The position numbers and the translations under genes were made by a program. This document shows, in pieces, positions 10,210 through 64,000 of a DNA stretch of 64,000 nt. The first letter of the stretch is position 1, and the number at the start of each line of letters is the position of its first letter. The notes under the pieces are model-generated. The model worked only from the letters and a program-made list of their open reading frames with translations. It was not told where the DNA came from and made no database searches. Source of the stretch: an uncultured Pseudobdellovibrionaceae bacterium (lineage in GTDB: Bacteria > Bdellovibrionota > Bdellovibrionia > Bdellovibrionales > JAGQZY01); NCBI GenBank assembly GCA_964588335.1, contig CAZPOV010000003.1, positions 148,125 through 212,124 of the forward strand, given 5' to 3'.

Positions 10210-10322
10210 AAAGTAGCTGATTTTCCCAAATTGATACGCCTTATTTTGAGCTGCTGAGCATGGGCTTTGCATCAATTTAAGATACATTATTATTGGCGGT
10301 CTTAAATTCTGGGGGGATTTTG

Positions 10323-47710: not shown

Positions 47711-47727
47711 TAGACTTGCAAGGCGCC

Positions 47728-50700
47728 TTACTGTTCTAAAAAGTAAGGGCCCCAGTTTTGCTGTTGACGCTGATAAAACCTTTCAGTGTTGATTTGAAAC
47801 TGGTTCATTTCATTCTGAAATTGATAAACACTTTGAGTTAATGGCTTAAACTCAAAAAGATCATCTTGCAGACTGACTTTGAGCTGAGAAGGGTTTTCTG
47901 GATAATAATCAAGAAACAAAGCCTCGGCATTCTCGTAAAGCTGATGAGCTGCATCCAATTGTAAATTCAAATCCTTTTTCGCTTGCACAAACTGCTGATC
48001 TAAAATTTCTTTATCAAATTTAAAAAGAAACAGTCCACGCCGAGTACGGGCCTCAAAAAATTCTTGAGCTCGAAAAAAGTAGGTTTTCCAAAAATCGCCA
48101 TCGCGATCATAGGACGGGGACACAGCGGCTCGAACCAAGTTGCGAGAGGTCGCATGAAAATTAAGGGAAACATAATAATCATTAATAAAATTACGTCCAA
48201 GATAAGGGGACGTCACCATCTCCAACGGCAAATCTAAAAATCCTTTCAGTCGACTGAATGGGATTGGCTTTTCGGTTTCATTGATCACCGCAAAGGCTTT
48301 GCTCTGTTGATGGCCTATTCCGGTATCGAACAGCAATTGAATACCCATGTTCTGTTTATGGAGAAAGTCCGTCTCCTTAATCGCCTCAAGATAGGTCTGC
48401 TCAGCTTGATCAATCTGCACCAGATTAAAACTCTGATGCATAGCTCGGGCTAAATCTTCAAGTGCCACTTTCTCTTCGATCAAACAGTCTTCAGAAAGGG
48501 GACGGTTAAGTTCTTGGCATTGTGGCTTGTCGTAGTTGGCAATTTTGTAGCCATTGAAAAAATACCGTTGAACCAAATGATCCAAGCGACCTTTTTCATA
48601 ACTTTCAAGATTTTCGACGTTCGACGAGTAATGGATCACCTCTTCTTTATCCCAAGCTGTGTAGAGTTCTCGTTTGGGAGAAAAGCTGAATTGATCAGAG
48701 GCTTGGGCCACGGCCTCAAGCGCAATCGCCGCCGCTGTCATATTGGGACGGTAGTGGACTACCGAGTCCGGAGCCTCGCGGTACGGAAAATCGGGGCTAT
48801 TGAGAGCATCAATAGGCATCTGTATGGTGAGACTACGACCGACGACGGCCGGAATCTCAAGATCAATAGCTTCATTCTGGTTGTACCTTAAACCGGTTGT
48901 CAGATAACGACGCACTCGGTTCATGTAGCTTTGTTTGGTAAACTTATAAAAAACCTGATCACCACTTTCAGACTTCACAATCCGAGAATCGTAATGCGAA
49001 CTGCGACCATTGACTTCAAAAAGAATATCATTGGCTTCATCGACGGTGAGTTCCGATTGATAAACCGCTTTTAAAAGAGGATAGACGGCTTTCATAAAGT
49101 ATTGCTTTTCACTTAAAACCACGGCTTTGGCTCGGCGTCGAGACTCATTGATTGAAACATACATGCAGTCATCAAAGATTTTTCCGTAAAAAGCCTGTTG
49201 TCCAAGATAGGATCGCACTCGATTATCAAGACTTTGAAAATAACGGGCTGTCGACTCAAGAGGAACTCTTGAAAACTCAGAATTCTGACGTTGCAGTTTT
49301 TGATAAGCCTTCATCACCTGATCAAAATATCCCATGATCGGAAGCACTTCTTGCCGAATTCGCGAGGTCACTGTTAAAGGTGAAGTATGAGTGAAATCCG
49401 CCGGATCAATCATAATAGAATCAAACTGAGAGCTTCGAAATTCATCACTATAGAAAAAGTTTGTATAAAACCGGTCCGAGATCTTTCGGTTCTCGAAGAA
49501 ATCTTTACTAAAACCCAAAAGATACTTGTCGAGATCGAAATACCGGATCAGCTCAGGTTGGTATTGATCCTTTTTAATTCCCTCACACCAACGAGCCCAA
49601 CGTCGCGACAGACTGTCTGGCGAATGATAAAGGTCACGCTGCATCTCCTGCACTGTCGAAATTAATATTTCTCTTTCGATCACTAAGTCTTTGAATAAAG
49701 TGAGAATAAAATCATCAGGATCAAAACCGTAAGATTTATAAACATTACCGGCAAAAAAGTAGTAAAAACTATCGACAATTTCGTGACGAAATAGACTGAC
49801 TTTGTTTTTTAAGGCACCAGAACCAATTCCATCTTCCGATTTTAAAAAATCGAACCATAAGCCACGGTAGGCACCAGCAAAGAACAGCTCGACAATAAGA
49901 TCGGCATTAACATCAAAAACACCAAGAAGCTTATCTTTCCACTCCGAGCGAACCATCTCGTACATGAAGGCCATCATATTTGGGTAAATCACTGTCTTCA
50001 TGACATTACGATCGATACTGCTAAAAAACTCTGCGATTTCATTGATTTGTTGCGAAGAAAGGGCTGTCGATTGCGCTTCAAGAAGATTTTGTAAAGCTTC
50101 GACACGACCGGTGTGAAATTCGACCCAATCAGGACGAAGAGTGTTTGCATAATCTTTCGAAGCCTTAACATGTTGAGCCGACTTGGTGGCCTGACTGTTG
50201 TAAAACGCTGCAATTTTCTCATTGGTATCGACTGCCATAATAGCTAAATCCCAACGGATTAAAACTTTACTGTAGTCGATGAGTCGGTCCAATGACTCGG
50301 TTTTGTTTGGAAAACTACGGATTAATAAGTTGGCCTGAGTGATCGACATTTCTTTGAAATAGACTGAAAACAGAACATGGTACTCCCATGGAGCGATTTC
50401 AAACATCTTTTGTATGTTGATATCTTTATAAGCCGGGTACTCAGAAAGATCCTTTTTACTGGCAATCATTTCTTGCCAATAGGCTTGCGCGTAGCGATCA
50501 AAACTGTCTCGAATCTCAGGATTCTCGTTGGCGTAAATCGAAATAAAAGGCGTTAAGAAGTTTTTAAGATCACGGTCCACCAAGGATGATTCCGACGATG
50601 CCTGTTGCCAAGGCGCCAAACGTATGAAATAGCGGCGTTGAAACTCTGAAGGGTTCTGCCAGTCCATCAGCTGAAAAGCCGCGATCACGTTGTGTGAGTG

Positions 50701-51387
50701 TCGTGCTTTTTCTGGAATATCGATATTTTGGTCCACCATAGAGAAAAAAGTTTCAATATAAAGTTGCGACAGATTGTCTTTTTGCCGACGGTTACCAACC
50801 TCGTAGGCAACACCAATCAATTTCAATTTACTTTCTAGATTGTCTTCGTTTTCAATAAAATAAATGACTATATCAACCAAGGAACTGGCCTGTGGAAGAC
50901 TTTCGCGCAGGTATGTACAGGTGTTGATACTGTCATCAGTACAAGGCGTGATGAAGCGCTCACGAAACAACGCCAATGATTTTTCAAACTCTGAACGAAA
51001 AGTGTCGTCGTTTGAGGTTTTGAATTTGACAAATAGGTCACGGTACAAGTTGAGGTAACCAGCATAAGGTCGACTTCCATATTGCGACTTGTCTTTTGAC
51101 CCCGGTCCAAACAACGCCAATTGGAGGCGCTCTAAAGCCAACACCCAACTCTCGATGGATTCAGATTCAATCAAAGCCTGAATTTGTAGATGATCGGGGC
51201 CATATTGCACAGACACTTCGCCGGCAGGGGATTGAGGTTCAACTCGGGTATTGGCCAAATCCTCATCCACGACTTTCTGGTGACGCGGCAGCTCCTTATC
51301 GGTGCAAGCGACGCCCCCAAAAACAAGGGCCAGTGCTAAAGTGCTTTGATAAAATGCTTTTACCCAATCGGTCTTAATCATTAACAA
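47728..51387 (-). CDS. 1219-aa orphan lipoprotein, paralog of the upstream 1234-aa gene
   Basis: Lipobox FGGVAC. I recognise no motif in it. A shared block with 51374..55078 is IYPNMMAFMYEMVRSEW...LIVELFFAGAYRGLWFDF versus AYPSMYPMLVAMTKNEL...LISLFFSGSFSPWFSY. The start overlaps the upstream gene by 14 nt. Confidence 0.7.
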   Translation of the reverse strand: MLMIKTDWVKAFYQSTLALALVFGGVACTDKELPRHQKVVDEDLANTRVEPQSPAGEVSVQYGPDHLQIQALIESESIESWVLALERLQLALFGPGSKDKSQYGSRPYAGYLNLYRDLFVKFKTSNDDTFRSEFEKSLALFRERFITPCTDDSINTCTYLRESLPQASSLVDIVIYFIENEDNLESKLKLIGVAYEVGNRRQKDNLSQLYIETFFSMVDQNIDIPEKARHSHNVIAAFQLMDWQNPSEFQRRYFIRLAPWQQASSESSLVDRDLKNFLTPFISIYANENPEIRDSFDRYAQAYWQEMIASKKDLSEYPAYKDINIQKMFEIAPWEYHVLFSVYFKEMSITQANLLIRSFPNKTESLDRLIDYSKVLIRWDLAIMAVDTNEKIAAFYNSQATKSAQHVKASKDYANTLRPDWVEFHTGRVEALQNLLEAQSTALSSQQINEIAEFFSSIDRNVMKTVIYPNMMAFMYEMVRSEWKDKLLGVFDVNADLIVELFFAGAYRGLWFDFLKSEDGIGSGALKNKVSLFRHEIVDSFYYFFAGNVYKSYGFDPDDFILTLFKDLVIEREILISTVQEMQRDLYHSPDSLSRRWARWCEGIKKDQYQPELIRYFDLDKYLLGFSKDFFENRKISDRFYTNFFYSDEFRSSQFDSIMIDPADFTHTSPLTVTSRIRQEVLPIMGYFDQVMKAYQKLQRQNSEFSRVPLESTARYFQSLDNRVRSYLGQQAFYGKIFDDCMYVSINESRRRAKAVVLSEKQYFMKAVYPLLKAVYQSELTVDEANDILFEVNGRSSHYDSRIVKSESGDQVFYKFTKQSYMNRVRRYLTTGLRYNQNEAIDLEIPAVVGRSLTIQMPIDALNSPDFPYREAPDSVVHYRPNMTAAAIALEAVAQASDQFSFSPKRELYTAWDKEEVIHYSSNVENLESYEKGRLDHLVQRYFFNGYKIANYDKPQCQELNRPLSEDCLIEEKVALEDLARAMHQSFNLVQIDQAEQTYLEAIKETDFLHKQNMGIQLLFDTGIGHQQSKAFAVINETEKPIPFSRLKGFLDLPLEMVTSPYLGRNFINDYYVSLNFHATSRNLVRAAVSPSYDRDGDFWKTYFFRAQEFFEARTRRGLFLFKFDKEILDQQFVQAKKDLNLQLDAAHQLYENAEALFLDYYPENPSQLKVSLQDDLFEFKPLTQSVYQFQNEMNQFQINTERFYQRQQQNWGPYFLEQ

Positions 51388-54300
51388 CTTCTTTTATTTC
51401 ATTAAGGTGCGAATTGATGTCAGAACGGTAATAGAATTTAAAATTCCTATTCATGTCACCGACAAATGTTTCAAATTTACCAAACTGAAACTCACTAACA
51501 ACCGGATCAATGGCATTGTCACTGGCATCACTGGCTCCAATAGGGAAACAACGATCATTTTCATAACAGTAAGTTCCTGCTTCAATGGTTGGGGCCATGA
51601 TCTTAGCCTCAATCAGGAAGCGTTTCACTGATTTAAAATAGTCGCTAATCCACAACTTGTGATCATTATCAAACAGTCCATAAATCTCCTCTTTGTTGTA
51701 AGGAAAGATAAAATAAGCCTTTTCCAAGTCATCTTCAGTGGATGTGAAGCGCGACAGACGATCTTGAAACCAAACACCCTCTTCACTGCGCACGCTACTG
51801 TCGGAAAAGACCTTTTTAAAGATCAAATCAAAGTAGGAGAACAACTGGTGATTGTTCTGTCTTTTAATAATATTCTCGTACTCCGTTCGGGTGTATTTTT
51901 TCACCTTACCAAGAGTCGTGAAAACAAATTTGTCGACAGGATCGTAATGCATGTAATCGATCATATCTTTATAATGATTGATCACTTCCGCAGGATGAAT
52001 GGATCGACAGTCCTGAGCCTGCTCTGGATTGTCACAATTAACATCATCAGCGACAGGAAGATCATTCAGTTTAAAGATTCCCGTAATTGTACTCCCTTTA
52101 CGTTCTATAAGACGCATATCCGGTGCACCAGATGACCATCTGAAAACTTTGGCAAACTCAAGTAAACCCTGCTTGATAAAATCACTTTTTGCGGTTTCTT
52201 TGTCTTTGCCCGTCCAATCAAATCGGACTCGCCATTTGTCGGACTTTTGAAACAGGCCATCTTCGATGTTGTCAAAACGACGGGGATATGAAAATTGGTA
52301 CTGACCAGCAAAAGGCTCTTCGCTCAAATAGCTAACTAAACGGGCATAATAATCCGATTTGTACATAACCAATTCCAAAGCCGTCATCTGTGAATAACCA
52401 TGATTGTCTCTAAAATCATCAGGCAGATGGGTGTTCTGATTGGCGTAGGTGAAGACCTCTTTACGAATATCCTCAATGGACGCCAATTGTTCTTGGCTCA
52501 GATTCTGTCTCTCTTCATCGGTCATCTGACCCACAGAGGCATACATTTTCTCAAAAAGATCTTCGAGAAACTGGGCTTCCTTGAAAAATAAAGCATAACG
52601 AACATCTCGTTCACGTTTAAGGAACGGAAGTTCACAGGATTGCCCGTTGACCTTTAATTCATCGTGCATTTCAAAAAACAAATCCGTGTACTCATGCTTT
52701 AAATCATTAAACTTTTTAAACTGCTCATCAATGATCTGCTCTAAAGACTCCTCACCTTCAACAGCGATATCATTGTCCTGGGCGTAACGTTTGTACATTT
52801 CAACCAACATCTTGACTTTGGTGTTATTCAAAACGTAGCCACTTTGAAAACGTTCAAAAGTCGTATTAACGTCATGAGAATAGACATCTTCGAAGTACTT
52901 ATAAGCACTATCACTGACATGATCCGAGTTCTGCGGATAAACCACACTTTGTCCAAGCTCAATAAAATCGATATCGTTTTTTCCCTGTCGACGAGGCAGT
53001 AGGTTCTGATTGAATCCTGTTACAATATCAAAATTACCGCTCTCTACGTTTTCGACGAGACTGCGACGTTCACGCTCTTGTAAACGTATTTCCTCGGCAC
53101 ACATCGATTTTAGATTTTCTATTTTCGACTGATAACTACCACGCACACGTTTTAGGTTGGTGAGCTTTATTTCGAGATTCTTTTCATTTTCCTCAATAAA
53201 TTTTGCCACAATGATGCGAAAAAATTCTTTTGCATCAAACTGCATTTTCGAGTTGTTTTTATAACTGCTCAAAGTCTGGGTCACAATGGTGTAATAAAAC
53301 GCCACCATCAGCTCAGTTTCGTCCAAAGCGACGGTGTTTCCACCGTATGAAAACCAAGGGCTAAAGGAACCAGAAAAGAAAAGACTGATCAGTGTATTAT
53401 GGTCGATGGTACCGAACCAGAAAGACTTTTTCAGCTCATTCTTTGTCATAGCCACCAACATCGGATACATCGACGGGTAGGCGGCCAAATATTTGATATT
53501 TAACTTAATAGCACGCACCAAAGTTCGAAACTCATCACGCGCTCGACGATTCTGAAAATCCGAATCAGGAACCACACGGTTGATAAAATCCAATAAATAG
53601 GTGGCTCTCAGATTGATTTTCTCCCAAGACAGGGTCAAAAAGTCAGCCTCTTGCTTGGTTTGCTGCAAAAGTGTGATCAAACCACCACTGTCATTGTTCT
53701 CATAAAACTTGTTCATTCTTGCATTGGTAAAAACGATGTTATAAACCAACTGCATTTTGATCAAATGAGTGGCGGCTTCGATCAATCGTTCACTGTTACG
53801 ATTTGAGTTTTCCCAAAACGAATCCGAATCAGAAATATAATAATGCTCATAAAATATTTGATGAGTCAGATAAAAGTACTCGTCATACTGAAAGTTCACA
53901 TCACCCATCATCGATCCTAGGATATTCTTACTCTCAGATCCAAACTTCATGACCTGGGGATTGGCCTCTAATTCGGCTTCAACCAGTTCATCGCGCTCCG
54001 GACTAAAAACCGTTGCTTCAGAAGCATCACTCCATGCGCCGTTGATATTGCTTTTCTGGAACTCAATTCCGTACTCGAAGTCTGATCCAATTCGATATTT
54101 AAGGTCCTCGATGGCCTCTTGCATTGAATTGGAAAGACTGGTTTTTTGGGCGTCCGAATAAAGAAATTTCTCGGAGGCTATTTTCAATAACTCGGGCATC
54201 GACTGCGATATTTCATCACTGGAACTCCGACTCATAGTCCATGGGTTCAGTTGTTCAACAATCGAGATATAGCTGTCATTACTGGCAAAATCCAAAGAAT

Positions 54301-55078
54301 CCAGTTTCAAAATCGTCGCAAACAATTGGTTGTCAAGCTGTCGACGAGTGGTTGAAAGCTCACCTTTTTGACGCAACTCAAAGCTCTCTAAAATCCGAGA
54401 CATGAGCATCAATCTTAACGTCGTATCCAAACGACGATTCTTCAGATCAAAAGTGGCTCGTAAAATACGTGTTTTTTCAGCCTCAACCGACTCATTATCG
54501 TAAATTATTTGCATGACTTTTGAAATATTGGGGGAGTCTGCATTCCTAAAAAAGTTTATGAGCTTGCAAGACCCAACAAGATTTTCATCACAGTCCCACA
54601 GAATAATATTCTTATAGGCCGGTAAGATATTGGTTGTAGTTAAAATCTCTTTATTACTGCCGTAAACCATAATCAGGGCTTGGTCAAAAAGACTGACCAG
54701 CTGATAACTCAGTTTTCGTCGATTTTCATCCATTACATTGCGAAAATCAGGGTTCAGCATGTTGTCCATATCGAAAAGAACTTCTTTCAGCGGTATGATG
54801 ACCTTCGTCATCAGCATATTGGGGTCCCGCTGTTCTTTGTGTTTCTCAAGCTCAGAGTTTACGAAGGGGCGAGTTTGTCGAATAAGCAGTTCCAATTGGC
54901 TTACCATGTCTTGATTCTGTAGACGTAGAGATTCGCTCTCTTCAACCAGATAATCGCCATCAGTCATCATTCGCTTCCGGGAGGAAGACTCAGGACTACA
55001 AGCGACTAGCAAAAGAGCGGTGACTAGCAGAGTGGTTCGCAATAGATCTTTAAGTGTCATCGTGTTCCTCATTGTCAT
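51374..55078 (-). CDS. 1234-aa orphan lipoprotein, paralog of 47728..51387
   Basis: Lipobox LLLVAC. The start is 3 nt after the metalloprotease stop. There is no HExxH motif. Confidence 0.7.
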   Translation of the reverse strand: MTMRNTMTLKDLLRTTLLVTALLLVACSPESSSRKRMMTDGDYLVEESESLRLQNQDMVSQLELLIRQTRPFVNSELEKHKEQRDPNMLMTKVIIPLKEVLFDMDNMLNPDFRNVMDENRRKLSYQLVSLFDQALIMVYGSNKEILTTTNILPAYKNIILWDCDENLVGSCKLINFFRNADSPNISKVMQIIYDNESVEAEKTRILRATFDLKNRRLDTTLRLMLMSRILESFELRQKGELSTTRRQLDNQLFATILKLDSLDFASNDSYISIVEQLNPWTMSRSSSDEISQSMPELLKIASEKFLYSDAQKTSLSNSMQEAIEDLKYRIGSDFEYGIEFQKSNINGAWSDASEATVFSPERDELVEAELEANPQVMKFGSESKNILGSMMGDVNFQYDEYFYLTHQIFYEHYYISDSDSFWENSNRNSERLIEAATHLIKMQLVYNIVFTNARMNKFYENNDSGGLITLLQQTKQEADFLTLSWEKINLRATYLLDFINRVVPDSDFQNRRARDEFRTLVRAIKLNIKYLAAYPSMYPMLVAMTKNELKKSFWFGTIDHNTLISLFFSGSFSPWFSYGGNTVALDETELMVAFYYTIVTQTLSSYKNNSKMQFDAKEFFRIIVAKFIEENEKNLEIKLTNLKRVRGSYQSKIENLKSMCAEEIRLQERERRSLVENVESGNFDIVTGFNQNLLPRRQGKNDIDFIELGQSVVYPQNSDHVSDSAYKYFEDVYSHDVNTTFERFQSGYVLNNTKVKMLVEMYKRYAQDNDIAVEGEESLEQIIDEQFKKFNDLKHEYTDLFFEMHDELKVNGQSCELPFLKRERDVRYALFFKEAQFLEDLFEKMYASVGQMTDEERQNLSQEQLASIEDIRKEVFTYANQNTHLPDDFRDNHGYSQMTALELVMYKSDYYARLVSYLSEEPFAGQYQFSYPRRFDNIEDGLFQKSDKWRVRFDWTGKDKETAKSDFIKQGLLEFAKVFRWSSGAPDMRLIERKGSTITGIFKLNDLPVADDVNCDNPEQAQDCRSIHPAEVINHYKDMIDYMHYDPVDKFVFTTLGKVKKYTRTEYENIIKRQNNHQLFSYFDLIFKKVFSDSSVRSEEGVWFQDRLSRFTSTEDDLEKAYFIFPYNKEEIYGLFDNDHKLWISDYFKSVKRFLIEAKIMAPTIEAGTYCYENDRCFPIGASDASDNAIDPVVSEFQFGKFETFVGDMNRNFKFYYRSDINSHLNEIKEVVND

Positions 55079-55081
55079 CTC

Positions 55082-58000
55082 CTATTCCAAATACTGGAAC
55101 ACTTGGGGAAGGATCCATCCGTTTAGAGAAAGAGCTGTAGCACCAATAAGGCCCAGTCCTTTCCGCGATTCAATACACTCTCTTTGGTCTGGTTTTCTAA
55201 CGCCATCCAAACTGTTGTACTTTTCAAATTGTTCGATCACTGAGTTTTCAAATTGCTGCTGCGTTAAACTACTGACAGCGATATTTGATGATGTCGTAAA
55301 TCCGTCGAATTTCTCTTCTTTGATCTCACCCTCCTCATCTGTGGTTCGATTGTTTTTAGTAAAGAAACTGGCTAGACCATTTTCACCACGCATACAATCA
55401 TCCAAGACCTTGTTTGACAGGGTTCGAATAATCGATTTAACGCTAAACCCTTGCAAAGGGTCACCATTTCGAGTTGGCTCGTAAGTCACCTCGACGGCCC
55501 AAATGTAAGCGGTTTTTGGTCCAATAAATCTGAGTTTTGTTAATGGCATAACGATCTGACCGTCTGTTCCACGCACCACGGTGTTTCCGTGCGGCAAGAT
55601 GTAAGCTTCCGGGAGCGTAATCAATCCGTCTTTGGCGCGACTGAATATCTTAGGTGTGAATCCAAAGATGATTGAATCAGAGATCTCTTGATCGACAACA
55701 GCTTCAAATAGAACTGGAGACACACTCACACGAAAGTTGGTCTGACCTTTAACATCATCCAAAAAGATATCATCAAAGCCTCGATGCAAATTGTCTCGAG
55801 TCAGCCAATTGTCTCGTCGCAAAAAGTATGACATGTACAAGTTCGCCAAACTCAACGAGGCTTTATCGCCCAGGTCAACACCTCCAAATGACATGTTGTT
55901 TTCAACCGAAGATTTAACAATATCGGTGTACTCTTCAGGATAGAAGGCATAATAGCTGTAATTACCTTTTTTACCTGAGTATTGAGGCTTGCTCACATTC
56001 CAGTATCCGTATCGCATTGTCGAAGACGGTGAGGTTAGAACGCTGAGTGCGGCCAACTTTAGGGGCAGAATCCCCAAAGTTATATAACGTCCAAAAACCT
56101 TATTGTATTGGGCTCGGGCGTTGGCACCTCGCAATCCTGTTGGAATCACTGAGCCTTCGAAGTCATACTCGGTATGATCATACCCAGGCAGCGAAAGTAA
56201 AGTTTTGGTGTGGTCTAAAGACTTTCGGTTGGCGCGACAAAGCTTATGAAGCTCTGTAAAAGCCACTCCATCAGCATAAAGACTGTTCTCTAAGTCCAAT
56301 TTCTCCTCAGCTGACAGGTCGAGATAGCTTTTGTCTCCAAAACTTCTCATAGCGCCTCGGTATTTATTTAACAGTGTTCTGTTGATCGAGTTGTAATCAC
56401 CGCCGCGGCGTTCGGTTTCGAAAAGTTTACCTGTCGCGGTAGCTGTCGGCTGTAGAACCAGCTTCGCAAAATCTTCTTGGTAGTCATCGCTAGCAAGTAG
56501 GGGATCGACACAGGCTTTAGAAAACTGGACCAAAACGTCACGGTCAGCAATCATCTCGTAGAACACCTTGGCATAGCTCGGTCTGTGAAGATCATCGATC
56601 ATGTCGAAACGCATCTTATCGTAAAATGTTCGATTGTAGTTCATTAAAGCATAAGTGTCGTGCCAAAGCCTCCAGCTCATGTAACTATCGCTACCTCCAG
56701 TGGCTTGCGTGAACGAGTTCATTCTCTTGATAAATGAATCTTTAAATTGATCAAAATTGTCGTCAATAATAGTTGGCGCATCATGACCGCTATCCCAACG
56801 TCGACAATAGGGGTCGGTCGCTAACCAGGCTTCCAAATCTGAACATTGTGGCATATAGCGCACCTGTCGCATCCGCCCTTGGTGTATAATGGTTTTTGGA
56901 ATGCTTCCGTCAATTGGTAGGTCTACCATAACGAAGTCATCTTCTCCAGGCTCAAAAGTCGCGATTTTTTGGTTATAAAGATATTGTAAAACCAGTTCAT
57001 CGTGGCTGCGCAAAGTCACATCCTCTGGTTTCAGTGAAACCTCTGTTTGCCCACTCTGGTAATCCATGACACTGGTATAGTGTTTACCCGAACGAACCCG
57101 TTCACTCATCTCTTGATAAAGAGTTTCAGGAATTGTTCCTCGTTCTGGCAAAATATTTCCTTTAAATTGGTGCCCCATTCCTAGGACATGACCAACCTCA
57201 TGCAACATGACATTTTTGATAACTGAAATAGCCGCTTCTTCACGCTCGGGATAGCCCATTTCTGAAGTTTGCGCCAGCCACTCACCGTAGTGATCGGCGA
57301 TGGTATTATCCCAATCAACATCCATTCGAAGCATGGTTTTGTAGTCAGTAATCAACTGCCTCTTGACCTCTTCAGGATTCTCGTTACTGATAACAGAGTT
57401 TCTTTTTTCCTTCTCAAGGTCGCTATAGACGGCTGAAACGCCAAGCTGGGATTTTTGCATCAAAGACTGTTTGTAGTCCTGTTCTTCTAAACGAAAGTTC
57501 CTAAAATCGGGGAAGACATCCGAGTCCAAATTATTAGGTACGGTTGCAACCACTTCAGAGATCTTTTTATTCACCAATTCTTCTATTTTTGACTGCAGAA
57601 CTTGACTGGCATTTTGACCACTTGCGGTCAATTGCTCTATCACTGACGCCTGTTGGTAATGGGATTGCAGTTGCCCAGCCTCATCTTCAATACCTAGAAC
57701 TCGAACCAGTTCGGTTTGTTCCATCGCACTCGCTTGGCTCGCATTGGCTCCAGCGGCTTCAATTTTCGCCTGCACATGAGTCAATAGCATCGCACGGAAA
57801 GACTCTTTTAATTTACTGTCGTCGGCCAGCTCTTCATGCTGCCCAATCGGACGCATACCCGTAATGTCAGGCATCTCTAACTGATGATTAATGTCCGAGA
57901 AATAGGGTTGATCTTTGATCGATTGAATTCTCTCTAAGACTTCATGAGTGTTTCGGGCCAATGCATCCACTGGCGATTCCGATTCACGATTGACAAGATA

Positions 58001-59209
58001 ATCGATCATTCCACCCCAAACAATAGCGCTTCCCCAAAGGATTTCACCGGTTTTGATGTTGGTATTCACCAAACCGATACCAAGAGGGGCACCCATAGAG
58101 AGCTCTGGGTCGGCGACAAAATTAATACTGGGACAACGCATATCAAAGACGTAATCATAGGTTTTGTCTGATACAACAAAACCAACCTGTCCGTCTTTAA
58201 GAGCTCCAATCTTGCGCAAGGTCTTGTTGACCTCGGCGATCACTTCTTCTCCTATCTTTCTATATCTTCCATCCTCAGGGAATCCATTCAGACACATCTT
58301 AATGGGTTTTGAGAAGTCCCAGTGAGCCGCGTAATTTTTTTCGTTCATACCATCTTCACGAGTCCCAAGAATATGCAGAATGTTCATATTCTGAGAGACA
58401 GTGTCTGGATCGTAGGCTGTGACTTTAAAACCTTTGGTTCCTTCGAACTCTAGGAAATTAAAACGAATCTCATGTTGAACGTCAGACCCAAACACACTAG
58501 ACGTTAGAGTGCCTGTGTAAGCAAAAAAGTTCTTACCGTTTTCATCTTGCGACAATTCAATATCGTGAACGTCGTGAACTCGTCCTCCGTTTAGAGGATG
58601 ATAGGTTCCGAAAAGAATAAGAGGGTCTTTTTCTCTATTTGTATAGTTAATATTTTTGATGTCGAGGTCCATATACGGCTGCAGCTGCCAGTTCTTTCGA
58701 TCAGAAACTTTGGCAAATCGATTCAACTCGCGACCTCTTGAATCCACGTCTTTTTCATAAAAATAGTGCTTTGTGATTGGAATCACAAAAAGAGTCTGCC
58801 AATCCGCAACATTCGGCTTGTCGACGTTGACCTCAAGAGCTTCAAGTCCTGAACCATCCTCAGTGATTCTAAAAACCATGTTACAGTGACGAGTATTATA
58901 AGGGGCTCCGGTCAGACCACCGACATTTTTAAATTTTCCGCTCTGCCGAACCGGCGCCCAACCACACAGCCATGTTTTATCTTCATAAGCCCATTCATTG
59001 GTTTCCTGGTTGATCTTAATACCAAAGAAAGATTTCTTTGCCGACAGAACACCATTTTGAACTTTTCCAAAAACCGAGGATTGCTCAAGTCCAGGAACCG
59101 GGTTTTCCTCTTCCGGGGTCACATAAGTGCATTGGCTCAAGAATAAGTAGGCGAGCGCCAGTACACTTATTGCGATGGTGGATTTTAGCTTTAGGGGAGT
59201 CCGCATCAT
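55082..59209 (-). CDS. 1375-aa secreted/lipoprotein metzincin-type zinc metalloprotease (DUF5117/DUF4953-like)
   Basis: HEVGHVLGMGH (plus-strand coordinates 57170-57202) is an HExxHxxGxxH motif, followed ~37 aa later by the SVMDY Met-turn. The upstream GAPLGIGLVNTNIKTGEILWGS block is typical of this family. The signal peptide ends FLSQC. Confidence 0.8.
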   Translation of the reverse strand: MMRTPLKLKSTIAISVLALAYLFLSQCTYVTPEEENPVPGLEQSSVFGKVQNGVLSAKKSFFGIKINQETNEWAYEDKTWLCGWAPVRQSGKFKNVGGLTGAPYNTRHCNMVFRITEDGSGLEALEVNVDKPNVADWQTLFVIPITKHYFYEKDVDSRGRELNRFAKVSDRKNWQLQPYMDLDIKNINYTNREKDPLILFGTYHPLNGGRVHDVHDIELSQDENGKNFFAYTGTLTSSVFGSDVQHEIRFNFLEFEGTKGFKVTAYDPDTVSQNMNILHILGTREDGMNEKNYAAHWDFSKPIKMCLNGFPEDGRYRKIGEEVIAEVNKTLRKIGALKDGQVGFVVSDKTYDYVFDMRCPSINFVADPELSMGAPLGIGLVNTNIKTGEILWGSAIVWGGMIDYLVNRESESPVDALARNTHEVLERIQSIKDQPYFSDINHQLEMPDITGMRPIGQHEELADDSKLKESFRAMLLTHVQAKIEAAGANASQASAMEQTELVRVLGIEDEAGQLQSHYQQASVIEQLTASGQNASQVLQSKIEELVNKKISEVVATVPNNLDSDVFPDFRNFRLEEQDYKQSLMQKSQLGVSAVYSDLEKEKRNSVISNENPEEVKRQLITDYKTMLRMDVDWDNTIADHYGEWLAQTSEMGYPEREEAAISVIKNVMLHEVGHVLGMGHQFKGNILPERGTIPETLYQEMSERVRSGKHYTSVMDYQSGQTEVSLKPEDVTLRSHDELVLQYLYNQKIATFEPGEDDFVMVDLPIDGSIPKTIIHQGRMRQVRYMPQCSDLEAWLATDPYCRRWDSGHDAPTIIDDNFDQFKDSFIKRMNSFTQATGGSDSYMSWRLWHDTYALMNYNRTFYDKMRFDMIDDLHRPSYAKVFYEMIADRDVLVQFSKACVDPLLASDDYQEDFAKLVLQPTATATGKLFETERRGGDYNSINRTLLNKYRGAMRSFGDKSYLDLSAEEKLDLENSLYADGVAFTELHKLCRANRKSLDHTKTLLSLPGYDHTEYDFEGSVIPTGLRGANARAQYNKVFGRYITLGILPLKLAALSVLTSPSSTMRYGYWNVSKPQYSGKKGNYSYYAFYPEEYTDIVKSSVENNMSFGGVDLGDKASLSLANLYMSYFLRRDNWLTRDNLHRGFDDIFLDDVKGQTNFRVSVSPVLFEAVVDQEISDSIIFGFTPKIFSRAKDGLITLPEAYILPHGNTVVRGTDGQIVMPLTKLRFIGPKTAYIWAVEVTYEPTRNGDPLQGFSVKSIIRTLSNKVLDDCMRGENGLASFFTKNNRTTDEEGEIKEEKFDGFTTSSNIAVSSLTQQQFENSVIEQFEKYNSLDGVRKPDQRECIESRKGLGLIGATALSLNGWILPQVFQYLE

Positions 59210-59366
59210 GGGATTTCATCCTTTCTTTTTTTATTAACACTTTTTAAGGTACACAAAATGTACCAAGTCTAAGTCACCGAAATGACAGTAAATATTATGC
59301 TTACAGCGCTCCAATAAATGGCTCCACCGTAAAATTGTCAGACACTTGTCCGCAGGTTGTCAGAAT

Positions 59367-60281
59367 TCAAAACGAATAGGTCACCCCACCCGAAATCAAG
59401 CGACGATATCGGTCAAACATCACCGGATCGATACTGTCGTTTTCTGGATATGATTGATTGAGATAGCTTAAGTAAAGTTGAAAACCCTGGACGTTGGCAA
59501 AAAGGGTGACATTGTTACCCATGACCGTTGTCCATTGACCATCAAGGTAGCGTTCAGCACTGGCATTAAAGCTGGTGCGCAACCCCAAAAAATTCCATGG
59601 AACGTAAGTGATTCCAAAAGAATTGGCGAGCAACCAATCGCGATTGATGAGATCAGTTGTAATTGAGTATTTTTGACTGTTCCACTGAAAGTGAGCCATC
59701 ATTCGATTGAATAGAATCATCTTATTCCAGCTGTATGAACTCATGAAGTTTGTCAAAGAAAGACTTCCGATGTGTTTATCAAAACGACTGACCTCACTGG
59801 TCGGTAAAGAGATATTGAAGGTATTGGAGCTGCGATTCACAAACGAAAGAGGCTTCATCTTGGAGTACACAACTCCAAAGTTCAGATTGGTAAATTGATG
59901 AAAAGGCTCGCTCGAAGTTTCGCGGACAATTCGACCGCCGTACGATTCATGAAGAACCCCAGCCGATGTGTAAGCACTCCAATGCTTATCAAAACCATAG
60001 GTGCCGGCGAGAGACAAAATATGACGGGTGGTTTTGATCTCGACTTGCTGTAACTGATCGTAAGTAAATCCATAGTTTGCGATCAGCCCAAAACGATTGG
60101 CCGGTGGCATGAAGTCCGATTGGTCCACACCCAGTTTGTTTTTTTCACTTTTCTTTGATTTTTTCTTATTATCTGTGATTTGAGTTTTGCTTTGGTTGGA
60201 CTTTTCTTCAGCAAACGCTGACGGCAATGACACCAGGCCACTCAGGAAAACTGCAATGAATGATTGAAATATAGGACGCAA
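59367..60281 (-). CDS. outer-membrane beta-barrel protein (small, ~14-16 strands predicted by eye)
   Basis: Signal peptide ...LPSAFA, alternating hydrophobic pattern, aromatic-rich sequence, and a C-terminal GGVTYSF ending in Phe. TTG start with a GGAGAGG RBS. Confidence 0.6.
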   Translation of the reverse strand: MRPIFQSFIAVFLSGLVSLPSAFAEEKSNQSKTQITDNKKKSKKSEKNKLGVDQSDFMPPANRFGLIANYGFTYDQLQQVEIKTTRHILSLAGTYGFDKHWSAYTSAGVLHESYGGRIVRETSSEPFHQFTNLNFGVVYSKMKPLSFVNRSSNTFNISLPTSEVSRFDKHIGSLSLTNFMSSYSWNKMILFNRMMAHFQWNSQKYSITTDLINRDWLLANSFGITYVPWNFLGLRTSFNASAERYLDGQWTTVMGNNVTLFANVQGFQLYLSYLNQSYPENDSIDPVMFDRYRRLISGGVTYSF

Positions 60282-60484
60282 AACCTCTCCACATTTTATT
60301 CGACTTGTACCCAGTTAAGAGATGCACAAAGCACGCCACGGCTAAGTTATTGATATTTCTGAAATTACAGAATTAAAAGTTGTACACCACTGACCATTTT
60401 CGCGCCCCCAAACCGCCAGCTCACTTTTTTTGACCGTCTAAAATCAGCTTCTTGACTCCTTCGAACAAGAGGCTAGAAACAACT

Positions 60485-60727
60485 ATGGTATTAAAAATGA
60501 TTCAACAATCGATCTATTTTACAAGATACGGGCTGGGGCTTTTGGGAATTGTTATTGGTATGGGAATGGTATTTCAAAGCGTTCTACCCATTCATCCAAG
60601 CTTTTTATTTCGGCTCGAAGGCGACACCGTTCCATTAATTTTTACCCATAGAGCTCTACTGGCTTTGGTTGGAGCCTGTATTTACATCACCGCCACCCAA
60701 TGCCTTCCTCTTGGGGAAAGGAAATAA
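60485..60727 (+). CDS. possible small 2-TM membrane protein
   Basis: Two hydrophobic segments (LGLLGIVIGMGMVF, ALLALVGACIYI). The RBS is weak. Confidence 0.3.
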   Translation: MVLKMIQQSIYFTRYGLGLLGIVIGMGMVFQSVLPIHPSFLFRLEGDTVPLIFTHRALLALVGACIYITATQCLPLGERK

Positions 60728-60730
60728 ACT

Positions 60731-61024
60731 TTAGAATGCCACCTCAACACCACTGTCATAAGTTTCCATTGAGGTGAATTCGATGCCTTGTTCCTGAGAG
60801 CTTTGATCGTCAGCTGACGCCACAAAGAAGGGAACGGTGCCAAACGGGCAGGGTGAATTCGGTCCGGTGACAGCTGTATAACCATCAGCACCATCCATAC
60901 AATACCATCCTGATACCGTGATCGTTGATTGACTTTCACTGGACTCACTTTGTAGGTCTTTTGGAGCATAGGCAAAGGACACATTGGCCAGCAACATTGA
61001 TAGAATAATGATCGTTTGTTTCAT
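60731..61024 (-). CDS. small secreted hypothetical protein
   Basis: Signal peptide MKQTIIILSMLLANVSFAYA and a GAGGAG RBS. It ends in ...VEVAF. Confidence 0.5.
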   Translation of the reverse strand: MKQTIIILSMLLANVSFAYAPKDLQSESSESQSTITVSGWYCMDGADGYTAVTGPNSPCPFGTVPFFVASADDQSSQEQGIEFTSMETYDSGVEVAF

Positions 61025-61352
61025 AGTAATCTCCTCACTAAAGTCAGTTCACAAATCATGCCAGGCTGCTGATTCACTCAGATCCAAATCAAAGTCTTTC
61101 GACGTGCCAGTGTTTCAGCGCAAATTGTTCGAGACGCTTTTTTTCGCAAATAAAAAATAGTTAGTGATTTCAGTATCCTGTAATATTTGCCTGAAATTTT
61201 TGTCAAAAAAATAGACGAAACCACCCCCTAAAACCTATTCACCTACGAAAGTTTTACCTAGTAAATTCAGCAACATAGACCATGGCCTGGTTTGTGTATC
61301 ATAATGGGGCACAAACAAACGGACATATTTAAAAACAAAAAGGCCTCAATCA

Positions 61353-62216
61353 GTGATCCAACTTTTCAAACATTTTAATCTGTTCCGAACCCTAGCGATC
61401 GGTGTTGGTTCACTTATGGCATGCAGCCTTTCGTTGGCCTCTTATGAAAACACCACACAATTAGGAATTAAGAAAAAAGAGAGTCAAATCAATCTAGTCA
61501 ACTCTTTTAGCTATCGCATGTCCTCGGATGCTTTTGATAGCAATGACCGCAAGGTCTTTAACCATGGTCTTGGTTACAATGGGACTCTGTTTTTTCTCGA
61601 TAAATATTATGCTAACGCTGGCTTAGCCGCCACTTATCACAGTGTTGATTCAACGATTATTCAACAAGATAACGGAACCTATCATTTAAGTGATGCTGTT
61701 ATCGGCTTAGGGACAAAAGGATTCCAACTCTACAAAGGCAACTCAGATAGCCTGTCTTTGTTTAATAATATCCGCAATGTTGTTCCTCTCAGTGATCGCA
61801 GTCGCAATGAAGGTTACAAGTCATTAACTTCTGTCTCCGGAGATTTGGCTTATCAGCGCGGCCCACTAAGCTTTGTTCTGACCGGGCAGTACAACTATGT
61901 CTTCAATTCGTTTGAAACCAATACCGATGGCTTATACAACTTACGATCGTCGTCCCTGGCTGGAGTCACAGCTCGTTACAATTACAAAAAACTTCGTCTG
62001 CAGTACTCTTACCGTTTTGGAGTGCTTGAATATATGGACGGCAATCGATTGGGCTCTTCAGGAAACACCCTTTCAATCATGGCATTATTTAATAAATCAT
62101 TATGGGCCGGCATTTCGACATCAAACTTGAGTTACGCTGAAGAACAGTATGTCGATGTTTGGTTTTATGACCCCTTTCGAAGAATTTATAACCTCACACT
62201 AGGAGTAACATTCTAA
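61353..62216 (+). CDS. outer-membrane beta-barrel protein, paralog of 59367..60281
   Basis: Signal peptide ...SLSLASY. The C-terminus DPFRRIYNLTLGVTF aligns with DRYRRLISGGVTYSF of the other barrel. Its stop overlaps the next ATG (TAATG). Confidence 0.6.
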   Translation: MIQLFKHFNLFRTLAIGVGSLMACSLSLASYENTTQLGIKKKESQINLVNSFSYRMSSDAFDSNDRKVFNHGLGYNGTLFFLDKYYANAGLAATYHSVDSTIIQQDNGTYHLSDAVIGLGTKGFQLYKGNSDSLSLFNNIRNVVPLSDRSRNEGYKSLTSVSGDLAYQRGPLSFVLTGQYNYVFNSFETNTDGLYNLRSSSLAGVTARYNYKKLRLQYSYRFGVLEYMDGNRLGSSGNTLSIMALFNKSLWAGISTSNLSYAEEQYVDVWFYDPFRRIYNLTLGVTF

Positions 62217-64000
62217 TGAGACTCATCCTAATAACAGCACTTTTCCTAAGCTTCGGCCTGACAGCATGTGACGTCAACAAGCGAGACCCCGAAACTCCAG
62301 CGCCCACTGTCAAAAGAGTGAAAAGCGATTTCTTTTTTGAATACAGTGCTGATCGTAGCACTTTCAAATCAAGACGGTTTTTATTTGGGATGGCGACTGA
62401 AGACAAAACCGGAGTCTACAGAGACATCACCATGGATCACTTTAACCACTACAGTTATGGAAGCTCCAATATTGAGTTTGACTTTAATGAAGAGGGGACC
62501 AAACTGATCGGACGTTTAGTCAACCCAACCTATCCTAATAATAAAAACAAGTGGCAGGTTCTATTAACCTTCGATGTGAGCCGTAGTTATTACCAAGAAA
62601 ATAGAGTCGATGGCAGTGGACGAACCAGTAACGACCAGATCGAAAGAACCGATCGCAGTCATCCTCACGCTCGAACCTATATCGATATTGAACTGAGTTC
62701 CTTAAGATTTGAAAACAATGTTCTGATTGGTCCCTATGCTGGCCTTGGCTTACGACAAATTCAAAAAATTGAAGATGTCGAATGGAGTATTGACGAAAAG
62801 TTCCTCGCCTTTACAGCCGTTTCAACCAACGTAGCCTTAGGATCCAATGCTCAAACTATTGACCGAGTGAATTTTTTGCGTATGGAGAAAAGACCAGATG
62901 ATTTCGAGGTCACGCGATACAATAAATTTAACGATGAACACGTGCAGATTCTTTACACCCTGGGCTCACGCCCTAACCACTATGGTGAAGATTTAAAGGC
63001 CGTGCACTGGGACATTAACGAGAAAACCAAAAAGACCCACACTATATATCTCCACAATTTCCCCTCTGAGTACCTGCAGATCGCTAAAGACTCTGTGGAA
63101 TCATGGAATGATACCTTCCAGGATGTAGTTGGTTATCGCCCTTTTAAAACGGAAGTTTGGGAAAGTAAGTATCACTTTGACCTTCGTCGCCATGTGATTC
63201 ACTGGGTGGATGACATCCGTCTGTCTGCCGCTGGTCCTCTTGGTGTTGCCAACATTGCCGCTGACGTTGAAACCGGACAGGTTCTGTGGACAGGCTCCAT
63301 TGTTTGGGGTGGATTGCTGGACCGCTACGCCGGTCGTTATGTGCCGTCTTCAAGCGTTGCAGGTTTTGCGTCCTATGCCAGCAATTCTCATAGTATGCAA
63401 AATCTTATTGCAGCCAATCGCAGCGCCTGGTCGACACCCTTGGCTCACCCCAGTTTAGAAACCTATTTTTCGGACTTTACTGATTACCTTACTGATCGAG
63501 TAACCGATCTGAATCAACGTGTGATTGAACAAAGAATTGAAGAGTACAATGCCGGTGTTGATGCCGCCGTTGAACGCAACGAGATCACGGAACAAGAGGC
63601 TACGATCAATAAACAACAGTTTGCTCTTGAGGCACGCAGCCCTGAGGACCTGTTCTCAGCCCAACAACAATTAAATACTCTGCGCGAGTCTCTGCAGATG
63701 GACCCGGTCAATGATGTTGACCTTGACGATGCCTATGCCGGCCTTCAACAAAGCCCGTTCACATTCAACCAAATGCTTGAGGAACTGGGAATGGAGACGT
63801 CGTCAACAGAAAACAACGCCCCTTTATATATGGGGATGATTGATCCTCAGTCTGAATTTTTCGAGCAATTGCCAGAAAATTTAAAAAACCGAGCCATGCA
63901 AGTACCCAATGGCTTTTACAAATACACCCATGATGGTGATTACTCGGCTTTTCAAGCCATTCAAAGTATCAATTCAGGCATAAGCGAGCTTTTAAGCTCT
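62216..64000 (+). CDS. metzincin-family lipoprotein paralog, N-terminal 595 codons (runs off the right edge; absent from ORF track)
   Basis: Hand translation is open from the ATG at 62216 to 64000. It has the lipobox FGLTAC. AAGPLGVANIAADVETGQVLWTGSIVWGGLLDRY aligns with GAPLGIGLVNTNIKTGEILWGSAIVWGGMIDYL of 55082..59209. Confidence 0.75.
   Translation, partial: MRLILITALFLSFGLTACDVNKRDPETPAPTVKRVKSDFFFEYSADRSTFKSRRFLFGMATEDKTGVYRDITMDHFNHYSYGSSNIEFDFNEEGTKLIGRLVNPTYPNNKNKWQVLLTFDVSRSYYQENRVDGSGRTSNDQIERTDRSHPHARTYIDIELSSLRFENNVLIGPYAGLGLRQIQKIEDVEWSIDEKFLAFTAVSTNVALGSNAQTIDRVNFLRMEKRPDDFEVTRYNKFNDEHVQILYTLGSRPNHYGEDLKAVHWDINEKTKKTHTIYLHNFPSEYLQIAKDSVESWNDTFQDVVGYRPFKTEVWESKYHFDLRRHVIHWVDDIRLSAAGPLGVANIAADVETGQVLWTGSIVWGGLLDRYAGRYVPSSSVAGFASYASNSHSMQNLIAANRSAWSTPLAHPSLETYFSDFTDYLTDRVTDLNQRVIEQRIEEYNAGVDAAVERNEITEQEATINKQQFALEARSPEDLFSAQQQLNTLRESLQMDPVNDVDLDDAYAGLQQSPFTFNQMLEELGMETSSTENNAPLYMGMIDPQSEFFEQLPENLKNRAMQVPNGFYKYTHDGDYSAFQAIQSINSGISELLSS

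Follow-up and report, generated by a model that had tools for sequence, protein, structure and literature searches.

What could four neighbouring genes for an outer-membrane beta-barrel, a metzincin protease and two giant lipoproteins be doing together in a bacterium from a lineage with predators? We addressed this question for a locus at positions 47728 to 60281 of a 64,000-nucleotide (64-kb) stretch of contig CAZPOV010000003.1 from an uncultured Pseudobdellovibrionaceae bacterium (GenBank assembly GCA_964588335.1). This whole stretch is called the window below, and its first letter is position 1. A first reading of the letters, referred to here as the original prediction, had proposed the locus as a candidate cell-surface system. 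Our analysis suggests that the four genes form a conserved unit which looks like a so far undescribed outer-membrane protein machine and whose function we infer from sequences, gene order and structure models. No description of such a four-gene module was found in the literature searched. The unit consists of the following genes:

59367..60281, minus strand: predicted outer-membrane 12-strand beta-barrel of 304 amino acids (aa), open reading frame (ORF) with a TTG start
55082..59209, minus strand: predicted metzincin lipoprotein of 1375 aa, ORF
51374..55078, minus strand: giant A, a predicted all-alpha lipoprotein of 1234 aa, ORF
47728..51387, minus strand: giant B, a predicted lipoprotein of 1219 aa and distant paralog of giant A, ORF with a TTG start

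The four genes are co-oriented, with 157 nucleotides (nt) between the barrel and the metzincin, 3 nt between the metzincin and giant A, and an overlap of 14 nt between giants A and B; these ORF coordinates agree exactly with the original prediction. Export signals can be recognised in the sequences of all four products. The barrel has a type I signal peptide and the other three have a signal peptide with a Cys, ending in ...FLSQC (metzincin), ...LLLVAC (giant A) and ...GGVAC (giant B). These ends, the TYSF terminus of the barrel and the HEVGHVLGMGH and SVMDY motifs of the protease are all present as first described. Of the three predicted lipoproteins, giants A and B have the canonical lipoboxes LVAC and GVAC, and the lipobox of the metzincin, L-S-Q-C, is atypical. 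Relatives of the metzincin have SSGC, TSC or SSC at this place, and the Cys is conserved.

A comparison with the orthologues in two related metagenome-assembled genomes (MAGs) shows how the genes evolve. Against the locus labelled L004, synonymous divergence (pS) is 0.60-0.79 and thus saturated, and non-synonymous divergence (pN) is 0.02-0.07 for the four genes. Against L003 the pN values are 0.10-0.19, and the pS values over both MAGs span 0.60-0.86. Because the synonymous sites are saturated while pN reaches only 0.02-0.19, all four genes are, as judged from these substitutions, coding and under strong purifying selection.

The neighbourhood seen in the window is also conserved elsewhere. 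Metzincin, both giants and barrel adjoin one another in 14 of the 15 distinct loci, among which the identity of the metzincin goes down to about 25%, and by this neighbourhood the four genes are a conserved functional unit. A genome scan with the metzincin alignment, for which the sample was one genome per GTDB species, found eight loci. All of them are labelled as Bdellovibrionales or Pseudobdellovibrionaceae MAGs, in line with the predatory lineage that had been suggested. As the scan relies on exact peptide patterns, it undercounts the loci. Three distant loci (L014, L015 and a contig of GCA_041447075.1) were reached through an exhaustive search with the giants. L014 (JAAHTH010000073.1) is a contig from a metagenome of the marine sponge Mycale hentscheli (PMC7196800), and therefore the family occurs also in a marine sponge metagenome. 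Scans of metagenome contigs with the barrel and metzincin alignments gave no matches.

While the four genes stay together, their order, which we mapped by tblastn, varies. The order barrel, metzincin, A, B is found in the window, in L003 (84% metzincin identity) and in L004 (97%). The order metzincin, A, barrel, B is found in L001, L002, L005, L006, L007, L009 and L010, and the distant loci have a metzincin, a giant, a barrel of about 290 aa and another giant. In L001 and L002 the barrel gene between the giants overlaps giant B by about 11 nt. Going by this mapping, the barrel between the giants is the common order, and the barrel-first order, which the original prediction had taken as that of the module, is derived. 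The module also occurs in several diverged copies per genome, at least three: the single MAG YZ12B_2.97 carries three module types, two at L004 (types I and II) and one at L008, which is on the same contig as L002. Each of the paralogous modules has its own co-diverged barrel. In predatory bacteria the module comes in multiple copies and is under strong constraint, which makes it a plausible part of an apparatus for prey contact or feeding.

What kind of protein is the barrel? The first gene had been read as a beta-barrel from the hallmarks of its sequence, and the structure model bears this out. The AlphaFold2 model, built on an alignment of 29 sequences, folds as a barrel with 12 long strands (predicted local distance difference test, pLDDT, 79.6; predicted template modelling score, pTM, 0.72). 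The protein begins with a type I signal peptide (SAFA/EEK), followed by a Lys-rich disordered linker at about residues 25-50, and ends in ...GVTYSF with a C-terminal aromatic residue. Directly before strand 1 there is a conserved LGVDQSDFMP, where a short helix (residues 54-57) is modelled with a pLDDT of about 82. In a Foldseek search of the PDB, the top 18 matches are all FapF, with E-values from 2e-10 to 2e-8 and template modelling (TM) scores of 0.55-0.67. The next matches are an OmpC model (5e-7), OmpG (2e-6) and the COG4313 channel 4rl8 (3e-6, TM 0.57/0.64), and the KdgM-family channel VhGalP, NanC and the EstA autotransporter are also among the matches listed. More than 170 PDB barrel structures match at E<=1e-3. 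At the level of sequence, the barrel has no Pfam, NCBIfam or PDB match, its 27 homologs contain no Pfam domain, and a scan of 29 barrel sequences gave no consistent family. According to the model, the 304-aa protein is an outer-membrane beta-barrel of known fold that is without a sequence family. For both the barrel and the giants, the profile and structure searches agree with the earlier expectation that they belong to no characterised family.

The two giants had been described as orphans, which needs to be corrected. Giants A and B match each other in BLASTP (E=1e-8 over 223 residues), and when 1.84 billion representatives were searched exhaustively with HMMER, 274 proteins reached E<=1e-3 and 84 reached E<=1e-30. 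As paralogs within a family of 274 representative clusters, the giants are therefore uncharacterised but not orphans. Nearly all full-length matches have 1050-1400 aa, and the remaining matches are fragments. A word-indexed search with the 19-giant alignment returned only three proteins, which had already been found. This alignment covers three giant subfamilies, and its invariant columns are six Cys, one of them that of the lipobox, together with two Trp, one Pro and one Asp. In the distant loci, giants at position 1 are far closer to other position-1 giants than to position-2 giants. From these sequence relationships we conclude that giants A and B are ancient paralogs that form separate lineages by position. 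An old duplication in which both copies are kept suggests non-redundant roles.

Neither giant A nor giant B has a match in Pfam or NCBIfam, and the family has no relative in the PDB. Among the distant members, eight are without a Pfam match and four without an NCBIfam match; of ten clusters of the family that were looked up, none has an informative name, and one member is labelled 'hypothetical protein'. The AlphaFold2 model of giant A (residues 35-1234, 60-sequence alignment) reaches a pLDDT of 89.3 and a pTM of 0.78 and is almost entirely helical, with about 60 helices. The best Foldseek match of this model in the PDB has an E-value of 6e-4 but a TM-score of about 0.1, to generic HEAT-type solenoids, and at this score we rejected the idea of HEAT or karyopherin-like solenoids. 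In BFVD the model has no match. The giants are, as modelled, a new family with a confident all-helical structure and without a structural relative in the searched libraries. With no solved structure that resembles their confident all-helical model, the giants represent new structural territory.

We also considered whether the giants might be cryptic zinc proteases, and rejected this as there is no conserved HExxH. A weak match (E 2.7e-4) was seen between positions 96-210 of the giant profile, corresponding to about residues 130-250 of giant A, and HIV-1 gp41 SOSIP chains; it covers a helix, a Cys-x7-Cys loop and a helix. A class I viral fusion module in the giants is probably a chance result, as the match partly involves an engineered SOSIP cysteine and BFVD gave no match.

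A conserved stretch of the giants follows directly on the lipid anchor. In an alignment of the family (A8), a lipobox-like Cys is present in 116 of 131 members and is followed by the motif C-[TS]-x-K-x-x-P-R-x-x-H-E-G. The Arg at +8 is found in 59 sequences, the His at +11 in 67 and the Glu at +12 in 50. Identity in the family is otherwise 15-20%, and the motif, which we call the tether, lies in a segment that is disordered in the model of giant A. The versions in the giants of the window have diverged (CSPESSSRKR and CTDKELPRHQ). On the basis of its sequence, the tether motif could be a sorting, docking or cleavage signal. In the window the N-termini with the tether are located as follows:

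54967-55000, minus strand: N-terminus of giant A with the tether (alignment A8)
51271-51306, minus strand: N-terminus of giant B with the tether (alignment A8)

The metzincin contains HEVGHVLGMGH at residue 670 and the Met-turn SVMDY at residue 713. Its match to the Pfam family DUF4953 (PF16313, 'Met-zincin'), with 26.4 bits against a gathering cut-off of 24.2 and an E-value of 4.9e-6, is marginal and partial, covering residues 656-854 and profile positions 5-190 of 316. The HExxHxxGxxH motif is kept in all full-length relatives (11/11), in the distant ones and in the paralogs of a second module, described below. The Met-turn S[VI]MDY is found in 10 of the 11 full-length relatives and, with the pattern used, in 0 of 4 more distant metzincins; in alignment A1, S713, M715, D716 and Y717 are invariant. 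By its conserved residues, the protease is a metzincin of DUF4953 that has diverged but keeps an intact active site. We found no mention of DUF4953 in the literature searched. The approximately 650 N-terminal and 520 C-terminal residues have no match in Pfam, NCBIfam or, by sequence, the PDB, and no PDB relative of the metzincin as a whole was found by sequence. Directly after the signal peptide there is a conserved C-T-Y-V-T-P-E. A relationship between the metzincin and the giants, for which BLASTP was also compared, was rejected because the hhalign match consists of the signal peptide only. Compared with L004 10001-14128, the metzincin has 97% protein identity, with pS 0.66 (near saturation) and pN 0.02. 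This is an unusually strong constraint over all 1375 residues, including the 1170 without a known domain.

Treating the four genes as a module was right, but the original prediction overlooked a second, divergent copy at the end of the window (61353-64000). The second copy and the small ORF between the modules are:

61353..62216, plus strand: second-module barrel, 287 aa, ending in ...LGVTF (matches the barrels of other loci; barrel profile match in L011, E 7.5e-76)
62216..64000, plus strand: predicted second-module metzincin lipoprotein, N-terminal 595 aa, translation MRLILITALFLSFGLTAC..., continuing past the window end
60731..61024, minus strand: predicted secreted small protein of 97 aa that has a signal peptide and 2 Cys, MKQTIIILSMLLANVSFAYAPKD... 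(translation, tblastn)

The second module is transcribed divergently from the first, and its metzincin, which overlaps the stop of the barrel by 1 nt, has 26% identity to the first metzincin. The complete protein can be seen in L003, L004 and L011, where it has 1271-1273 aa and contains HExxHxxGxxH. In these three loci it is followed by two more giant lipoproteins of 1375 and 1194 aa. The 97-aa ORF, which lies between the modules and upstream of the barrel, has 70% identity to its counterpart in L004 and is absent from L003, as found by tblastn.

The genes that flank the module are housekeeping genes unrelated to it, coding for E1 dehydrogenase, acyl-CoA dehydrogenase, YkuD, MscS and TrkH/TrkA, and therefore the borders of the module are sharp. 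The MAG CAYGNH (L011) has TrkH, a 1409-aa Na/H exchanger, MscS, acyl-CoA dehydrogenase, E1 dehydrogenase, a 343-aa gene and, after 271 nt, the second module. Because the equivalent flank in L011 adjoins the second module directly, across L011 9730-10000, the first module of the window together with the small ORF (47711-61352) is a lineage-specific insertion or duplication of about 13.6 kb.

Is there a sign of how the module is expressed? We found copies of a promoter-like motif of the form TGGC-N4-TTT-N-TGCA at these positions:

60323..60338, minus strand: -24/-12 (sigma-54-like) motif TGGCGTGCTTTGTGCA, 42 nt upstream of the barrel start codon
59250..59265, minus strand: weaker copy TGGTACATTTTGTGTA (2 mismatches), in the 157 nt that separate barrel and metzincin
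61048-61063, minus strand: copy with 1 mismatch, upstream of the 97-aa ORF
61283-61298, plus strand: copy with 1 mismatch, upstream of the second-module barrel

The copies that precede the barrel, the 97-aa ORF and the second-module barrel are correctly oriented at a distance of 24-55 nt, and three of the four motif matches of the window fall inside the 1.07-kb region between the modules. The exact motif TGGCNNNNTTTNTGCA occurs once in the 64-kb window, upstream of the barrel. In the 348 kb of window and loci taken together it occurs three times, the other two being upstream of the barrel at the equivalent position in L003 and L004. The module of the window thus appears to be driven by a -24/-12-type promoter. 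Going by the consensus GG-N10-GC, the motif presumably belongs to sigma-54. The copy TGGTACATTTTGTGTA in the gap is conserved in L004 and absent from L003, and represents a possible internal promoter. A Pfam scan of 24 window proteins revealed no enhancer-binding protein, and a generic scan for sigma-70 promoters and terminators gave results at or below chance.

A few further observations concern the surroundings of the modules. Rfam and tRNA scans of the 64-kb window gave no matches. The window also codes for a 508-aa protein with a pretoxin HINT domain (10293-11819, plus strand) and for a 1409-aa protein (37246-41475, plus strand) with an N-terminal Na+/H+ exchanger domain and a long C-terminal region that has a weak AAA_22 match. 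In L013, a MamF_MmsF-family gene is found directly upstream of the distant module copy there (L013 5442-5978); magnetotactic Bdellovibrionota are reportedly described in a 2026 paper.

How might the four proteins work together? The reading that we favour, to which we give a probability of about 0.4, is that the metzincin, giants A and B and the barrel would assemble into one outer-membrane complex, in which the giants scaffold extracellular proteolysis. Through the barrel, as the complex's own conduit or anchor, the lipoproteins, or at a minimum their N-terminal tethers, would arrive at the outer face. The plugged 12-strand channel FapF serves the secretion of unfolded polypeptide and needs a periplasmic protease for it (PMC5557850). 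The role of a conduit is suggested for the barrel because FapF, a dedicated polypeptide secretion channel, is its best solved match. By analogy, the barrel might do for the metzincin and the giants what Slam does for its neighbouring lipoproteins and FapF for unfolded polypeptides. Giants A and B may together build a helical scaffold in which neither is redundant and which would hold the substrate, shield it or present it to the metzincin. The complex would then degrade protein outside the cell, which might be prey envelope or environmental protein, and the diverged paralogous copies could be aimed at different targets. Surface display through the barrel is plausible, with the surface exposure and the export role being what we infer. 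A bolder form of this idea is a new lipoprotein display machine, unrelated to Slam, the Bacteroidota export signal or LptDE flipping. Here the FapF-like barrel would recognise the tether C-[TS]-x-K-x-x-P-R-x-x-H-E-G and put a complex of about 400 kDa, made of the metzincin and two giant helical proteins with a new fold, on the surface of the predator, with copies tuned to prey or substrates. We regard this version as speculative and rather unlikely.

Several points weigh against the idea of a surface complex with its own conduit. The similarity of the barrel to FapF is at the level of the fold, with an identity of only 12-14% and no common sequence family. FapF has an N-terminal coiled-coil trimerisation domain, where the barrel has only about 30 Lys-rich residues of low confidence. 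The Fap system includes the partners FapA-E, whereas the neighbours in the module are the metzincin and giants only, without Fap homologs. By the rule known from E. coli, lipoproteins with Thr or Ser at +2 go to the inner leaflet of the outer membrane. The lumen of a 12-strand barrel is too small for folded proteins of 130 kDa, and the conserved giant residues C660 and C815, which are far apart in sequence, would hinder threading if they were paired and oxidised in the periplasm. In L013 (GCA_030427805.1) the metzincin and both giants are present with no adjoining barrel. The 157-nt gap contains a promoter-like motif, so that the barrel may be transcribed separately in the window. Finally, the TM-scores to COG4313 4rl8 equal those to FapF, and an uptake role is therefore equally compatible with the fold.

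This last point leads to the rival that survives best, a protein-utilisation locus, which we consider unlikely but worth serious attention. The barrel would be a substrate-specific uptake channel for peptides made by the protease or for unfolded polypeptide, and the giants would be binding or capping lipoproteins similar to SusD. Analogues are KdgM/NanC-type channels encoded with degradative enzymes and the SusC/SusD pairs, in which a barrel gene is likewise strictly coupled to one for a helical lipoprotein. Besides FapF, the OmpC model and EstA, the structural neighbours listed are uptake channels and general porins. The protease is intact, and the presence of multiple diverged copies in a genome is similar to the way in which nutrient-acquisition loci expand. 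On the other hand, the E-value to FapF is four orders of magnitude better than to any uptake channel, and the module contains no TonB-dependent or ABC importer. Uptake would also leave the route of the lipoproteins to the surface unexplained, unless digestion is periplasmic, and the tether motif beside the lipid anchor is easier to read as a sorting or docking signal.

Another possibility, which we find improbable, is that the complex faces the periplasm. The lipoproteins would be placed by Lol on the inner leaflet of the outer membrane and act on the cell's own envelope or on imported material, and the barrel would be a co-regulated anchor or porin that translocates nothing. This would fit with the +2 residues, which are Thr or Ser and not Asp, with conserved cysteines that suit periplasmic folding, with the barrel-less L013 and with the fact that no surface-export machinery or signal is established. 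But a mere co-regulated porin would not be expected to diverge together with each module or to keep its overlap with giant B across deep divergence, and the closest fold is that of a gated secretion channel.

Partial parallels for a released product are FapD/FapF and NalP-type shedding. It is very improbable that the metzincin cuts the tether of the giants, and perhaps its own, to shed a soluble protease and giant complex into medium or prey with the barrel as secretion pore: the P-R-x-x-H-E-G motif 7-13 residues past the lipid anchor, the always co-encoded protease and the periplasmic protease required for Fap secretion through FapF (PMC5557850) agree with it, whereas the motif differs in the window giants, and the objections from pore size and disulfides apply to it in the same way as to the surface complex.

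It remains to compare the module with the systems it resembles. The original prediction had cited Slam and two-partner secretion as established cases of a barrel encoded next to its cargo, and the barrel of the module is related to neither. In two-partner secretion, TpsB is a 16-strand barrel of the Omp85 type that carries POTRA domains, and the cargo is recognisable by a TPS domain. We rejected this system for the module, as the barrel has 12 strands and 304 aa and none of the four proteins has a Pfam match to POTRA, ShlB or TPS. The PorP/SprF proteins of the type IX secretion system (T9SS) belong to the PorP_SprF sequence family, and the cargo there has a T9SS C-terminal domain; they were rejected because neither the barrel nor the giants have a Pfam or NCBIfam match. 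A resemblance to BoNT/NTNH or Tc toxins was rejected as well, given that giants and protease are not paralogous and that the proteins are all predicted lipoproteins.

The SusC/SusD loci of Bacteroidota combine a 22-strand TonB-dependent transporter with a helical lipoprotein, and the two genes are strictly paired. Like these loci, the module unites genes for a barrel, for helical lipoproteins and for a hydrolase that is a lipoprotein, and it has diverged paralogous copies. It is not a member of this group and differs by the small 12-strand barrel, by giants without a match to tetratricopeptide repeats (TPRs) or SusD, and by its occurrence in another phylum. With DUF4953 the protease has in common a passed gathering score, HExxHxxGxxH and a Met-turn with Tyr, but only 186 of 316 profile positions are matched and the module protease is a predicted lipoprotein. 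COG4313 (Pput2725, PDB 4rl8) is also a 12-strand barrel, with a TM-score of 0.57/0.64 that is as good as for FapF, but its E-value is four orders of magnitude weaker and there is no sequence-family match. COG4313 proteins are implicated in the uptake of hydrophobic small molecules and are not paired with giant lipoproteins (PMC4493636).

The likeness to FapF includes the barrel itself, with 12 strands and about 250 residues, the disordered linker and the short conserved segment that lie N-terminal to it, and a gene in an operon with exported partners and a protease (PDB 5o65/5o67/5o68; PMC5557850). The module is nevertheless not a Fap system. The partners are of a different kind, since Fap cargo consists of small unfolded amyloid subunits and the module has lipoproteins of 130-150 kDa. 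The Fap protease is a C39 cysteine peptidase and that of the module a metzincin. Slam is alike in its arrangement and in the candidate function, with the gene for an outer-membrane barrel beside lipoprotein genes, and Slam genes adjoin those for the lipoproteins that Slam displays (PMC5449769). Slam proteins combine a DUF560 barrel of 14 strands with a TPR domain at the N-terminus, and their cargo has a TbpB-like beta fold of barrel and handle (PMC5449769). We rejected membership in this group, as the barrel of the module has 12 strands and neither TPR nor DUF560, and giant A is all-helical in its model and not TbpB-like.

The significance of the module can be seen from the wider comparison. 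Routes of lipoproteins to the cell surface are known in few lineages, namely Slam in Proteobacteria, an export signal in Bacteroidota and LptD in Borrelia, and the surface display of lipoproteins in other diderm bacteria is an open question. A barrel encoded with lipoproteins that have a motif adjacent to their anchor offers a testable candidate from another phylum. Should the barrel serve uptake and nothing else, the module would represent a protein-utilisation locus of a new type.

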